DNA of 63,838 nt from Myxococcota bacterium (lineage in GTDB: Bacteria > Myxococcota > XYA12-FULL-58-9 > JALHOP01), in contig JBGGMJ010000129.1 of NCBI GenBank assembly GCA_041288095.1, forward strand, positions 1-63,838, written 5' to 3'. The first letter of the stretch is position 1. The number at the start of each line of letters is the position of its first letter. Below, piece by piece: positions 13,352 to 24,618 of the stretch. The translations under genes and the position numbers were made by a program. The notes below the pieces were generated by a model, which was given only the letters and a program-made list of their open reading frames with translations, ran no database searches and had not been told where the DNA came from.

Positions 13352-14770
13352 ATGGCAGCGCAGGCAAACTTCGGAGTGGTCGGTCTCGGCGTCATGGGCG
13401 CCAATCTCGCCATGAACTTCGCCGATCACGGGGCGCGCGTCGCCGTGTGGAACCTCGAGCGCGACAAGCAGGAGAAGTTCCTCGCCGAGCATCCCGGCTT
13501 CGTCGACGCCAAGGATCTCGCGGCCCTGGTCGCGGCCATCGAGAAGCCGCGGCGCATCCTCGTCATGGTGACTGCCGGCAAGGCGGTCGACTCGGTCGCC
13601 GAAAACCTTTCGCAGTTCCTCGAGAAGGGCGACGTCATCATCGACGGCGGCAACTCGCTCTACACCGACACCCGACGTCGCGAACAAGCGATGGCCGCCA
13701 AGGGCCTGCGCTTCGTGGGCATGGGCGTCTCCGGAGGCGAAGAGGGCGCGCGTCACGGGCCGTCACTGATGCCCGGCGGCGCCAGGGAAGCCTACGAGCA
13801 CTTGAAACCCCTGCTCGAGAGCGTCGCCGCCAAGACCGAGTCCGGCCCCTGCGTGACCTATTGTGGCCCGGATGGCGCCGGACACTTCACCAAGATGGTG
13901 CACAACGGCATCGAGTACGCGGACATGCAGCTCATCGCCGGGGCCTACGACGTGCTGCGCCGGGGCATCGGCCTCGACAACGATGCGATCGCGGACGTCT
14001 TCGCCAAGTGGAACGAAGGTCCCTTGCAGTCGTTCCTCATCGAGATCACCGCCAAGATCTTCCGCGTTCGTGACGGCGACACGAAGAAGCACCTGGTCGA
14101 TGTGGTCCTCGATCAAGCGGGGCAAAAAGGGACCGGCCGCTGGACGGTCGAAGCCGCGCTCGAGGTGGGTGTAGCGATCCCAAGCATCGCCGCCGCTCTC
14201 GATGCCCGCGTCATCTCATCGCAAAAAGACGCCCGCGTAGCCTTGGCGAAGAGCTTCGACGAGCCTGCTCGCGCCAGCGTATCGGCCAGCGACCGCGCCG
14301 TCCGCATCGCCGAGGTCCACGACGGCCTCCTCGCCGCGAAGATCTGCGCCTACGCCCAAGGCATGGAGCTCATCCACGCGGCGTCGCAGGCCTACAAGTG
14401 GGACATCGACCGCAAGGAGGTCGCGCGCATCTGGAAGGGCGGCTGCATCATCCGCGCGCGCTTGCTCGACACCATCATGCAAGCGTTCGGCAAACAGAAG
14501 GACCTACGCAACCTCATCGCCGACGCCTCGTTGGGCGGCGACGTCCGCAAAGCCGCCCCCGCCTGGCGCGAGCTCCTCGCCCGCTCGATGCGCGAAGGCA
14601 TCGCCATGCCCGCATTCGCCGCGAGCCTCACCTGGTTCGACGGCGTCCGCAGCCCCGATTTGCCGCAAAACCTAACCCAAGCCCAACGCGATGCCTTCGG
14701 CGCCCATACGTATATTCGCCGTGACAACGTGAAGTCCGGCCCAGTCCACTCCGAATGGCTGAAGGAGTAG
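13352..14770 (+). CDS. gnd: 6-phosphogluconate dehydrogenase (NADP, decarboxylating)
   Basis: GLGVMGANLA, GMGVSGGEEGARHGP, KMVHNGIEY, QAQRDAFGAHTY. Confidence 0.97.
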   Translation: MAAQANFGVVGLGVMGANLAMNFADHGARVAVWNLERDKQEKFLAEHPGFVDAKDLAALVAAIEKPRRILVMVTAGKAVDSVAENLSQFLEKGDVIIDGGNSLYTDTRRREQAMAAKGLRFVGMGVSGGEEGARHGPSLMPGGAREAYEHLKPLLESVAAKTESGPCVTYCGPDGAGHFTKMVHNGIEYADMQLIAGAYDVLRRGIGLDNDAIADVFAKWNEGPLQSFLIEITAKIFRVRDGDTKKHLVDVVLDQAGQKGTGRWTVEAALEVGVAIPSIAAALDARVISSQKDARVALAKSFDEPARASVSASDRAVRIAEVHDGLLAAKICAYAQGMELIHAASQAYKWDIDRKEVARIWKGGCIIRARLLDTIMQAFGKQKDLRNLIADASLGGDVRKAAPAWRELLARSMREGIAMPAFAASLTWFDGVRSPDLPQNLTQAQRDAFGAHTYIRRDNVKSGPVHSEWLKE

Positions 14771-14782
14771 GGAAGCCCAATA

Positions 14783-14910
14783 GGGTGGCATAGCCGGCAC
14801 CGCAGCCCCGGGGCCCCACGCCCAGCAGGCGGACATCTCTGCCCACGCACCCCAGATCCGCCGAGGACAGCGTGGGGCCCCGGGGCGAGGCGCGCAAGGC
14901 GACGCCACCC
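14783..14910. repeat. Long GC-rich hairpin (REP/MITE-like) downstream of gnd
   Basis: Perfect 17-bp IR gccccggggccccacgc (14805-14821) / gcgtggggccccggggc (14870-14886), closed by gggtggc/gccaccc. Confidence 0.6.
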
Positions 14911-14955
14911 GATCGCCCCGCTGTCAGGAGTCTGCTATAGCGGACTTGGGGGACG

Positions 14956-14989
14956 AAAAAAAAGCGACCCCCCCGAGTCGCTTTTTCTT
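14956..14989 (-). terminator. Intrinsic terminator (possibly bidirectional)
   Basis: Minus strand AAAAAGCGAC-TCGGGGGG-GTCGCTTTTTTTT; plus strand also ends in tttttcttc. Confidence 0.8.
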
Positions 14990-15085
14990 CTGGCGTGCGA
15001 CGCTCAAGCGCGTCCCCGGTTGGCCCCCCATGCCTCGCAGGGACGCGCCGAGCATCACCCCCCAGGACGTTCCATCGAACAGTGC
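14956..15085 (-). ncRNA. Candidate sigma-54-dependent small RNA (~130 nt)
   Basis: Bounded by -24/-12 promoter and U8 terminator; ~17-bp internal stem with G-U pairs only on minus strand; no credible ORF. Confidence 0.55.
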
Positions 15086-15094
15086 CCCTAAGGT

Positions 15095-15112
15095 TTGCAG
15101 AGGGCGTGCCAG
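15095..15112 (-). promoter_or_regulatory. Sigma-54 (-24/-12) promoter
   Basis: CTGGCACGCCCTCTGCAA vs consensus YTGGCACG-N4-TTGCW; exact GG-N10-GC spacing. Confidence 0.7.
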
Positions 15113-15119
15113 CGTAGAC

Positions 15120-15210
15120 CGCTTCAAAACCCCACTTTTAAGCGGGTGCGGCAATCGGGGTGGTTCCAAATTTCACCACCGGCCCCTTGTTGGGGCGATT
15201 TGCCACACCG
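15120..15210 (-). promoter_or_regulatory. Putative enhancer (bEBP binding) palindromes
   Basis: TGTGGC-AAATC-GCCCCA at 15191-15207 (about -114 from predicted TSS) plus related TG(C/G)GG half-sites and GGTGG..CCACC. Confidence 0.45.
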
Positions 15211-15274
15211 GTCTGACGTGTAGGGCACGGTTTTTTCGTGACTTAGGGGAACTCGCGAGCCGCTTCGGCGTTGC

Positions 15275-16882
15275 TTACGCGATCTGCTCGGCCCGCAACG
15301 GCGGCTCATCGCCATCGCCATCGTCATCACTCGGCGGCTCAACCACCTTCTTCGGCACCGGCGTATCCGCATTCAGCCAAGCCCCAACCCGCGTCGCCGA
15401 GGTAGCAACCACACAGTTCGCCGCCGACACCAACAACACGCCCATCCACCCAATCATCCCCATGTCGCCGAACGCCTGGAACACGAAGCAGATGATGACG
15501 CACACCGAGGTGAGCGCGGCGACCGCGATGTCTGGGTCAGTCGTGATCCGATAGACGCGCGCTCCGAGGAAGATCGAGATGACGTAGTAGAGCCACATCC
15601 CCGCGAAGCCGACGCCGCCGCACAACATGAGCAACCACAACACGCTGTTGTGCGCGATGTACCGGTAGTTCGGCATCGCATGCGAGATGTCGTAAGCGAC
15701 GCTGACCTCGGTGTACTCGTGCCCGAAGCCCAGCCCCAGGATCGGCGCCTCGCGGAAGGTGTAGAGCAGGTTGTAGTTCTCGATGTCGCGCGTCTGGTTC
15801 GACGCGTTCTTGGTGTCGGCGACCGAGACCAAGCTGCGAATCGGGAAGAAGATGATCGACTCGCCCTTCGCCGCGATGCCGGCGCCGACGTACATGATGA
15901 GGATCGGCGCGCCTATGAGCATCCAGCGAACGATCCGCTTGCGCAGATTCACGTTCATCACCAGGAAGATCGCGGCCAGCGACATCGCCAAGGACACATA
16001 GGCGAGCCGCCGGTGGTTCACGACCAGGCCGACCGCGATGACCGGGAAGATGCACATCACCGTCATGATCATCCGCTTTGTCGGACGCTCGAGGACCATG
16101 GCGCCCAGCATCACCACGGTGGTGATGAGGAGGATCGAGTCCTCGTGGGTGATGCTGTATTCGACGAAGAGGGCGCGCGGCTTCACCATCGCGTAGAAGA
16201 AATAGATGCCGTCGAGGCAGCGGATGAGCGCGACGCCGATGACGATGAAGCCCAGGGCCCGATGCCACTTGGGCGTACGGAAGGCGTGGATGAACATCGC
16301 GCTCATGAGCGGCGCCCACATGATCTGGCGCGTCTGCCAGAGCATCTGTTGGGAGTTGCCGCCACGCGCCACTCCCCAAACGATCCACGTGAACAGCGTT
16401 ACCAGGCACAACACCATCGCGAGCTTCAGCGGTTTCGCGGCGCTCGTACCTTCCGGATTGTCGATGCGGCTGCCGACGAGCCAGCGCAGCAGGACGAGGA
16501 GAGCGAGGAAAAACAGCACCGCCTCGATGGCGTTGAAGCGCAGCGCATCGAGGCCGACGATGTTGCGCAGGTTGTCGTAGAGCAGACGCCCGACCGGTTG
16601 CAGCGGCCCGTCCCACTTGCCGTCGTGCGGCCGCATGCCGGGGTTGTGCATGAGCAGGCACACGCCGAAGAGCACGATGAGCGAGTGCGAGATCGGCTTC
16701 ACCGTCATGTACCAAACGACGCCGATGAGGATGGTCGGCACGAGGGCGACGACGAGGTTGCCGTCGCTCACCAGGAGCATCATCACGGTGATGAGCGTCA
16801 GGCCGACGGCGCCAAGCAGGATGGGCAAAGGGAGCTTCGGAGCTTGGAGCTTCATGACCTTTGCTTGGGCACTCAAGGGCAT
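15275..16882 (-). CDS. O-antigen ligase/Wzy-like polysaccharide polymerase membrane protein
   Basis: Many TM helices, NHRR, R-x-IEN, PILGLGFGHEY, HNSVLW (Wzy_C HN motif); start 16882 or 16855. Confidence 0.8.
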   Translation of the reverse strand: MPLSAQAKVMKLQAPKLPLPILLGAVGLTLITVMMLLVSDGNLVVALVPTILIGVVWYMTVKPISHSLIVLFGVCLLMHNPGMRPHDGKWDGPLQPVGRLLYDNLRNIVGLDALRFNAIEAVLFFLALLVLLRWLVGSRIDNPEGTSAAKPLKLAMVLCLVTLFTWIVWGVARGGNSQQMLWQTRQIMWAPLMSAMFIHAFRTPKWHRALGFIVIGVALIRCLDGIYFFYAMVKPRALFVEYSITHEDSILLITTVVMLGAMVLERPTKRMIMTVMCIFPVIAVGLVVNHRRLAYVSLAMSLAAIFLVMNVNLRKRIVRWMLIGAPILIMYVGAGIAAKGESIIFFPIRSLVSVADTKNASNQTRDIENYNLLYTFREAPILGLGFGHEYTEVSVAYDISHAMPNYRYIAHNSVLWLLMLCGGVGFAGMWLYYVISIFLGARVYRITTDPDIAVAALTSVCVIICFVFQAFGDMGMIGWMGVLLVSAANCVVATSATRVGAWLNADTPVPKKVVEPPSDDDGDGDEPPLRAEQIA

Positions 16883-24193: not shown

Positions 24194-24588
<395 letters not shown>

Positions 24589-24589
24589 T

Positions 24590-24618
24590 CGGGCCCGCTC
24601 TACGGGCCCGTTTTTTTT
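24590..24618 (+). terminator. Intrinsic terminator of ssrA
   Basis: cgggcccg-ctcta-cgggcccg followed by T8. Confidence 0.85.

Follow-up and report, generated by a model that had tools for sequence, protein, structure and literature searches.

The contig we investigated (JBGGMJ010000129.1, here C129) is 63.8 kb long, was analyzed over its whole length as one window, and belongs to a metagenome-assembled genome of 5.85 Mb and 66% G+C from a bacterium of the Myxococcota. On its minus strand, in the 504-bp gap between gnd, which lies on the plus strand, and a minus-strand gene for a protein with a Wzy_C domain (15275-16882; Pfam), we find what is probably the gene of a small RNA (sRNA) of about 130 nt (14956..15085). 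The original prediction for this stretch had proposed an unannotated minus-strand sRNA under the control of sigma-54 and a bacterial enhancer-binding protein (bEBP), and this core claim came through the computational checks on read-through, conservation and repeat families reported below. We have good confidence that the locus would specify a real sigma-54-driven non-coding RNA, and going by sequence comparison it very probably represents a new, genus-restricted RNA family of the bEBP- and sigma-54-controlled kind. That we are dealing with an independent, sigma-54-driven sRNA gene on the minus strand whose product acts in trans by base pairing is the account that we favor, with moderate confidence; pairing through the G tracts of the RNA is a tentative proposal for its mode of action. 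The production of the RNA, its exact ends, its dependence on sigma-54 and all steps that follow transcription are what we infer from these comparisons.

According to the mechanism we propose, an enhancer-binding protein bound at repeats near -114 and -85 would activate the -24/-12 promoter at 15111-15096. Transcription would start near 15085 and end at a hairpin followed by U8, at 14956. The product would be an RNA of about 130 nt, made of a small 5' hairpin, a long near-perfect hairpin and the terminator, and it would act by chaperone-independent base pairing in trans, with its invariant G-rich stretches as the contact surface for C/U-rich RNAs. The main contact would be the G6 of the apical loop, perhaps together with the invariant 5' arm of the long hairpin.

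Conservation and distribution

We compared this genome with those of three congeners (four species in all, completeness 84-97%), and counts of species refer to this set throughout. The locus is present in all three congeners and in none of 57 other relatives searched with blastn. The mean pairwise identity is 62% in the enhancer region, 90% from -26 to -11, 68% from -10 to -1, 94.4% in the RNA body, and 64% in the next 30 nt past the terminator. The conservation boundary thus seen on the 5' side coincides with the predicted +1. For the gnd coding sequence the same measure is 81-88%; the RNA therefore evolves more slowly than the adjoining housekeeping gene. The original prediction had asked for a conserved GG-N10-GC promoter box and a conserved stem in relatives, and both are kept in the three congeners and in four metagenome runs. 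It had also raised the possibility of a genome-wide repeat family; the locus is single-copy.

Contigs from all four metagenome runs that we examined (soil, biofilm, activated carbon) contain the RNA body, with zero to one change in three runs and a variant of one congener in the fourth. The flanks of these metagenome contigs differ, yet they hold the -24/-12 box with its GG and GC intact. A covariance model built for the RNA gives matches with E values of 1e-23 to 1e-26, all within the genus. With this model the RNA was found in 4 of the 22 genomes of the order (0/18 outside the genus) and, in a sample of the phylum, in 4 of 151 genomes and 1 of 95 genera (0/147 others); both figures come from samples in which several genomes are incomplete. 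Only two other genomes of the order carry a gnd of the same type, and a filter-free model search of these loci yielded no more than 8 bits. A gapped pattern of two G tracts recovered the three congeners alone among genome contigs and nothing among metagenome contigs. Four metagenome contigs that share an invariant 20-mer with the RNA were set aside as chance matches: none of the four matches the model at E<=1, and no similarity is shared in their flanks.

The original prediction had named read-through from the Wzy-like gene as another possible source of the transcript. The Wzy-like gene is co-directional with the RNA, and read-through is possible in this genome. In two congeners, however, the gene upstream of the RNA is a divergent radical-SAM-type gene. 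Because that gene is divergent, read-through is impossible there and the RNA needs its own promoter, which disposes of read-through as the sole source of the transcript in these two species.

Promoter and upstream sites

The near-consensus sigma-54 -24/-12 box lies on the minus strand at 15096..15111 (GG at 15110/15109, GC at 15098/15097), with GG and GC ten nucleotides apart, and agrees with the promoter originally proposed. Over the four species it averages 90% pairwise identity and has changed at non-consensus positions only; GG and GC are invariant in these species and in three promoter variants from metagenome contigs. The box is among the ten best-scoring sites in a sigma-54 scan of the genome. 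A degenerate 16-nt promoter motif has 11 matches in the genome, where base composition leads one to expect about 6 genome-wide and about 0.0005 in the 500-bp gap. Seven of the 11 matches fall outside crudely called open reading frames (ORFs), and behind four of these seven a same-strand ORF follows at a distance of 29-87 nt, from which we conclude that real promoters are marked by the motif in this organism. The promoter of the RNA is alone among the matches in having no same-strand ORF for about 2.2 kb, and its weight as evidence rests on its conservation and position. A simple scan of 14500-15600 found no sigma-70-like promoter. The genome encodes a single rpoN (one Sigma54_DBD match, 219 bits) and has 41 matches to Sigma54_activat, 34 of them at 83 bits or more, which gives about 34 bEBP genes. 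It is on sigma-54 that the promoter presumably depends.

Two inverted repeats upstream of the box are candidate bEBP sites. The first, dyad 1 (15191..15207, minus strand; arms and spacer 6-5-6), is centered at about -114 and had been described as a 17-bp palindrome; its position holds, and its symmetry is imperfect, with five of six positions symmetric per arm. It is retained with small changes in all three congeners. The second (15159..15180, minus strand) is centered at about -85; its outer arms are kept in all four species, and a metagenome contig from run X3 has it too, in its loose end. Enhancer sites had been expected some 80-150 bp upstream, and these two conserved repeats are candidates for them. 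An A/T-rich inverted repeat in the interval between enhancer and promoter (15124..15141, minus strand; about -56 to -39) may be a bending site; one congener has it as a perfect 6-6-6 repeat, the others in partial form. A terminator-like hairpin with a T run is seen on the plus strand at 15217-15239, between the enhancer region and the stop codon of the Wzy-like gene; it is not kept in the congeners.

A second promoter with the same dyad

Eight copies of the dyad-1 type occur in the genome, and two of them, one of which belongs to the RNA, each lie within 160 nt upstream of one of the 11 strongest sigma-54 boxes. The second of these dyad-bearing sigma-54 promoters (C164:15608-16240, equivalent to L031:1309-1941), with its dyad centered at about -87, precedes the genes for a 66-aa DUF1328 protein and a YgaP-like membrane protein, and its dyad and -24/-12 box are kept in all four species. 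The letters from +1 to +4 are identical at the RNA and DUF1328 promoters in all four species, which supports the start site that we place at 15085 and also a single activator for both promoters. From the sequence of the two promoters, one activator is probably common to the RNA and the DUF1328 operon, and such a shared activator points to an envelope or stress signal. No bEBP gene was found beside the RNA or the DUF1328 locus. A common origin of the 5' part of the RNA and the DUF1328 leader was considered and rejected: their alignment score of 16 was matched by 253 of 2000 shuffles.

A 24-nt stretch in another contig (C128:20304-20500, L051) is identical at 22 of 24 positions to enhancer site 1 and its flank. 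The right half of this stretch is kept in the congeners, inside a conserved intergenic region, and the 160 nt downstream of the stretch showed no sigma-54 box. In this genome only, the stretch is followed by a tandem array of three units, about 30 nt in length, every one of which contains a 5-bp G+C hairpin.

Predicted structure and strand

The predicted RNA (minus strand, 14956..15085; +1 placed 12 nt past the C of the -12 element) folds into three elements at the places where they had been expected. The small 5' hairpin SL1 (stem-loop 1; 15068..15081) is weakly supported, as one congener breaks one of its pairs and lacks this hairpin in its minimum free energy (MFE) fold. The long hairpin SL2 (14990..15065) has about 31 pairs and a 3-bp apical stem with a 7-nt loop (15031-15025). 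It forms a nearly continuous helix in which 15065-15038 pairs with 15018-14990. The 17-bp stem originally described (14999-15016 with 15040-15056) is present, but as the core of this longer helix and not as the whole stem. The third element is a bidirectional intrinsic terminator (14956..14990) with an A run, a G+C stem, a G7 that occupies loop and upper stem, and U8 on the minus strand; hairpin and U8 stand at 14990-14956 as had been proposed, and all 15 predicted pairs are invariant in the four species. A simple terminator scan did not list the hairpin at 14956-14990, we think because an A-U extension of the stem consumes the U tail. On the plus strand this terminator plausibly also serves gnd.

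The minus-strand fold has a free energy of -77.5 kcal/mol and a z score of -6.7, with none of 200 shuffled sequences folding as well; the plus strand reaches -54.4 kcal/mol and z = -5.6. Across the four species the fold z scores range from -5.4 to -7.2, and the three congeners fold alike. In each of the four species the sense strand folds more stably than the antisense strand, by 12-23 kcal/mol, because five to six G-U pairs turn into C-A mismatches on the complement. This bears out the earlier claim that G-U pairs of the stem exist on the minus strand only.

The changes that have occurred in the RNA are compatible with the fold. In the apical stem there is one double change from G-C to A-U, with two species each way. 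In one species a G and a C were inserted opposite each other, which lengthens the SL2 helix. Further changes are from G-C to G-U, of which there are several, and from U-G to U-A. Eight of the ten variable columns of the RNA are on the 3' arm or in an internal loop; the 5' arm and all G tracts are invariant.

Coding potential and known RNA families

Four ORFs of at least 20 aa overlap the RNA, and they either start upstream of the promoter and cross the terminator or lie on the opposite strand. In one congener the RNA body carries two 1-nt insertions and one 1-nt deletion. The coding reading was therefore rejected, as the longer frames are broken by these indels and the ORFs ignore the limits set by promoter and terminator; the earlier statement that the 130 nt hold no credible ORF stands.

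A search of Rfam 15, which the original prediction had called for, assigned the RNA region to no known family, either at threshold or even at E<0.08. Over 14700-15400 the best matches were sbcD with 21 bits (threshold 40), at 14804-14993 and thus mostly downstream of the RNA, and STnc250 with 17.6 bits (threshold 42), strongest at the terminator hairpin. The 6C RNA family had no match on either strand at E up to 10. The one Rfam match above threshold in the window is a full-length tmRNA gene at 24194-24590 (165.6 bits).

G tracts

The three G runs of the RNA, all on the minus strand, lie where the original prediction put them, at 15058..15063 (G tract 1, G6), 15024..15029 (G tract 2, G6) and 14968..14974 (G tract 3, G7). 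Their exposure had been described too generously. The second alone is looped out over its whole length, at the apex of SL2, with an unpaired probability of 0.91-1.0, and is invariant in all four species; the third is half in the upper stem of the terminator and half in its loop, and the first, which had been taken to be free 5' of the long stem, is predicted to pair within the lower, imperfect portion of the long helix. Runs of at least six G number 827 in the genome on both strands, or 0.009 expected per 130 nt, and the RNA locus is the sole instance in the genome of three such runs within 110 nt. Among the 827 G/C runs of this length, 185 are located outside called ORFs, in a fraction that makes up 11% of the genome.

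Together with the next four nucleotides, G tract 1 could pair with the 3' tail of the 16S rRNA that this genome encodes (contig C138), in a predicted duplex of 10 contiguous pairs and -18.6 kcal/mol. A duplex of this strength was found for 3 of 2792 predicted gene leaders and for 3 of 1500 random windows of 130 nt. The intramolecular quadruplex that had been suggested as one use of the tracts is not favored: the quadruplex-aware MFE fold is identical to the plain MFE fold and contains no quadruplex. Apart from one 6-nt gap the G-tract spacing is 28 and 39 nt, which differs from the short-loop arrangement of four tracts. A quadruplex formed between molecules or with the aid of a protein would be compatible with these results.

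Mode of action and alternative explanations

Searches of the four genomes found neither the Hfq nor the CsrA family, which makes a mechanism of the Hfq type or a CsrA sponge unlikely. The A/G-rich linker and U8 of the RNA resemble an Hfq module, for which no Hfq partner was found here, and a single GGA at a loop edge is not the pattern of a sponge of the CsrB/RsmZ type. Strong G-C contacts would suit pairing without a chaperone. Taking the possible modes of action together, we rank base pairing above protein binding, protein binding above a cis role linked to gnd, and that above an anti-Shine-Dalgarno mimic.

Several observations weigh against the account of a sigma-54-driven sRNA that pairs through its G tracts. 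Some of them concern the RNA as such. None of the 24 sequencing runs listed is an RNA run. In the covariation test, made with four near-identical sequences, 43 of 51 pairs never vary and one changes on both sides, and the covariation score was equalled by 87 of 500 shuffles; the test has no power, and it is thermodynamics and strand asymmetry that support the structure. With 11 matches against about 6 expected, the promoter motif on its own is weak genome-wide. There is no Sigma54_activat match on C129, and the 28 of 52 window ORFs that were run against Pfam include no such domain. Other observations concern the pairing. Poor accessibility is expected for the whole of G tract 1 and for half of G tract 3, which are paired in the predicted fold. 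When the three G-rich segments were run against 8,505 crude gene starts, the duplexes were no stronger than with coding controls (for segment 2, means of -17.0 kcal/mol at gene starts and -17.6 kcal/mol in coding controls). A C5 run stands directly before the ATG at 12 of 2793 starts, about the level given by base composition. The near-invariance of both arms and the terminator also exceeds what a seed plus scaffold needs. The C-rich partner or targets that had been envisaged were not found in the surveys made here. For a partner RNA, the 185 intergenic runs of at least six G or C were listed and contained no second cluster, and a search for a C-rich stem-loop of the Pxr kind (see below) had no match either. 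For targets, six loci were fetched, three were searched in the congeners, and two could be compared across species: the start of an epimerase gene was rejected as its C6 is lost in one congener, and a C-rich lipoprotein leader was rejected as its C runs are not kept. The third candidate has an orthologue in only one of the three congeners and was dropped.

Two side observations belong to these surveys. At several likely starts, 5-6 C in a row separate a GGAG-type Shine-Dalgarno sequence from the ATG. A terminator-like hairpin with a T run (L038:60-130, contig C192) lies just upstream of the epimerase-like gene; this hairpin is identical in three aligned species, and the spacer next to it has a 49-nt insertion in one of them.

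If the RNA were not a base-pairing regulator, it might be a sponge or scaffold whose G tracts and long helix are recognized by an RNA-binding protein that is thereby titrated or delivered. A motif repeated three times and partly placed in loops is the usual design of a sponge, the near-invariant helix arms and terminator fit protein contacts better than a short seed, and no signal of mRNA targets was found. However, CsrA and Hfq were each found in none of the four genomes, GGA-in-loop repeats are missing, no candidate protein that binds G tracts was identified, and one tract only is fully exposed, so that we regard this as a minor possibility. Somewhat less probable is a device in cis for gnd, in which the RNA, by way of the shared bidirectional terminator, base-pairs with the gnd mRNA at its 3' end (G7 loop against C7 loop) or serves as a conditional read-through leader that gives rise to antisense transcripts reaching into gnd. 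The synteny would fit, since gnd is the sole neighbor kept in four of four species while the other flank differs, and the terminator is shared and invariant; a palindrome just past it (14945-14930) is also kept. Yet antisense partners co-vary automatically, which leaves the 94% conservation of the body unexplained, identity falls to 64% within 30 nt past the terminator, known ligand-sensing leaders do not resemble a long perfect hairpin, and the two genomes of the order that have this type of gnd lack such an RNA. We also think it unlikely that the RNA is a genus-specific poly-G regulator in the fuller sense that a dedicated bEBP co-activates it with the DUF1328/YgaP-like operon, and that its G6-G7 tracts capture the pyrimidine-rich 16S tail (holding the 30S subunit, or being shielded by it) or soak up C-rich RNAs by several contacts made of G-C pairs alone, a use of such tracts not described for any sRNA, in a host lacking both Hfq and CsrA; of these readings it stands between the sponge and the gnd device.

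The complementarity to the 16S tail could also be the function in itself, with G tract 1 and its four neighboring bases acting as an anti-Shine-Dalgarno mimic that protects the 5' end of the RNA, as a stabilizer Shine-Dalgarno sequence does, or holds 30S. The 10-pair duplex of -18.6 kcal/mol is rarely matched among leaders or random windows and the stretch is invariant, but it was noticed after the fact and is predicted to be paired in the lower helix; an AUG stands only 2-3 nt off and opens a frame that crosses the terminator and that indels interrupt in one congener, and the other two G tracts match the 16S tail less well, all of which makes this reading quite improbable. Least credible are two accounts that deny the minus-strand RNA altogether. 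In one, the functional transcript is the plus strand, a C-rich-loop RNA from the 3' untranslated region (UTR) of gnd, and the minus-strand promoter is fortuitous. Its C-rich loops would resemble those of known anti-Shine-Dalgarno sRNAs, it folds well (z = -5.6), and the terminator-like site at 15217-15239 could end it in this genome; against this, its fold is worse by 12-23 kcal/mol in all four species, it must read through the strong terminator at 14956-14990, the congeners have not kept the site at 15217-15239, no sigma-70-like promoter was found in 14500-15600, and the conserved box, the enhancer repeats and the conservation boundary at +1 remain unexplained. We consider it very unlikely, and give as little credit to the other account, in which the locus is no RNA gene at all and is a DNA-level element or the gene of a tiny peptide. 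An invariant ORF of six codons (15075-15055) is preceded by G's at a plausible distance. However, selection on an RNA is indicated by the strand-specific G-U pairs and the paired insertion, a leader peptide would have no downstream gene to control, every longer frame is interrupted by indels, and invariance at all codon positions gives no support for coding. The preferred account remains the trans-acting, sigma-54-driven sRNA.

Genomic neighborhood

The gnd gene (6-phosphogluconate dehydrogenase; 13352..14770, plus strand; Pfam 6PGD and NAD_binding_2) is convergent with the RNA and has zwf upstream of it; synteny identifies it as the sole neighbor of the RNA that is retained in all four species. 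In two congeners the opposite side is taken by the radical-SAM-type gene mentioned above, whose products share 83% amino acid identity and whose G+C content at third codon positions (GC3) is 0.78-0.83. The Wzy-like gene takes the place of this gene here; the flank has therefore been rearranged, with the RNA and gnd kept together as a pair. The radical-SAM-type genes (L017:1515-2828 and L019:1560-2798) encode proteins of 412-437 aa with a CxxxCxxC motif, for which Pfam gave no match at E<=1e-5, and in both congeners they adjoin a DUF4130-UDG gene.

Between the gnd stop codon and the shared terminator, an inverted repeat (14804-14900; 17-bp arms, 46-nt loop) is present in this genome only, and the spacer from gnd to the terminator therefore measures about 185 nt, compared to about 60-95 nt in the congeners. 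The sub-threshold sbcD match of 21 bits arises from this repeat. The palindrome at 14945-14930 has 16 bp and an A/T center, lies about 10 nt past the terminator, and is found in all four species; changes in its arms maintain or improve the symmetry while the surroundings diverge. Its role may be that of a protein site, or it may form a hairpin within the gnd 3' UTR.

Implications

If real, this would be, after Pxr, the second family of sigma-54-dependent sRNAs that we found described for myxobacteria, and the first such family from those lineages, still uncultured, that are dominant among soil Myxococcota. Its reach is limited by an uncultured host and by a distribution within a single genus. 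The approach is more general: an orphan sigma-54 promoter together with a sharp conservation boundary can flag sRNA genes in metagenome-assembled genomes for which there are no RNA data. The shared enhancer motif could help to assign a signal to one of the approximately 34 uncharacterized bEBPs, and the G-tract design, which mirrors the C-rich sRNAs of Gram-positive bacteria, could through its mechanism widen the known types of seed.

Comparison with known systems

Several sRNAs depend on sigma-54 and a bEBP, among them Qrr (LuxO), GlmY/GlmZ (GlrR), CrcZ/CrcY (CbrB) and NrsZ (NtrC). The locus described here shares with them an orphan -24/-12 promoter with activator sites that leads to a short, terminated non-coding RNA. 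These known RNAs act with Hfq, or with partners of the Crc or CsrA type. In contrast, the RNA from this locus has no Rfam match, and Hfq or CsrA partners were not found in its hosts. We know of no RNA of the Qrr, GlmY, CrcZ or NrsZ type that is built around G6-G7 tracts.

In its repeated tracts the RNA resembles sRNAs with C-rich loops, such as the 6C RNA of Actinobacteria, RsaE/RoxS of Firmicutes, and cuckoo/CcsR. Like these, it has short homopolymer-like tracts repeated in loops and linkers, and G-C contacts can do without Hfq. Unlike these, it has G tracts instead of C tracts and therefore cannot mask Shine-Dalgarno sequences in the way that C-rich-loop sRNAs do. GcvB has a G/U-rich seed and depends on Hfq, and the STAB-SD elements of cryIIIA sit in mRNAs. 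There is no homology to either, and binding of the 16S tail is in our case a computed duplex only; the likeness is that of a purine- or G-rich single-stranded element that can meet C/A- or C/U-rich RNA or the 16S tail.

A close parallel is Pxr. Two reports describe Pxr, from Myxococcus xanthus and other Cystobacterineae, as having a predicted sigma-54 promoter, an upstream enhancer region and three predicted stem-loops, with a narrow phylogenetic range and very high conservation (PMC5684412, PMC5568312). M. xanthus is stated to lack hfq (PMC5684412). Membership in the Pxr family was rejected on a comparison at the level of the probe for the first stem-loop of Pxr: the complement of this 26-nt probe (PMC5568312), with up to 6 mismatches allowed, had no match in the genome. 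The two loci also differ in their surroundings, as pxr lies directly downstream of the NtrC-like regulator gene pxrR, whereas here no bEBP gene was found on the contig and the neighbors are the Wzy_C-domain gene and gnd here, and the radical-SAM-type gene and gnd in two congeners. Judged by its probe, the first stem-loop of Pxr is C-rich (PMC5568312), whereas the RNA described here is G-rich and tied to gnd. Nevertheless, the two have much in common: a predicted sigma-54 promoter and enhancer region, three predicted stem-loops, very high conservation and a narrow range, in a myxobacterial host in which hfq is missing or was not found.

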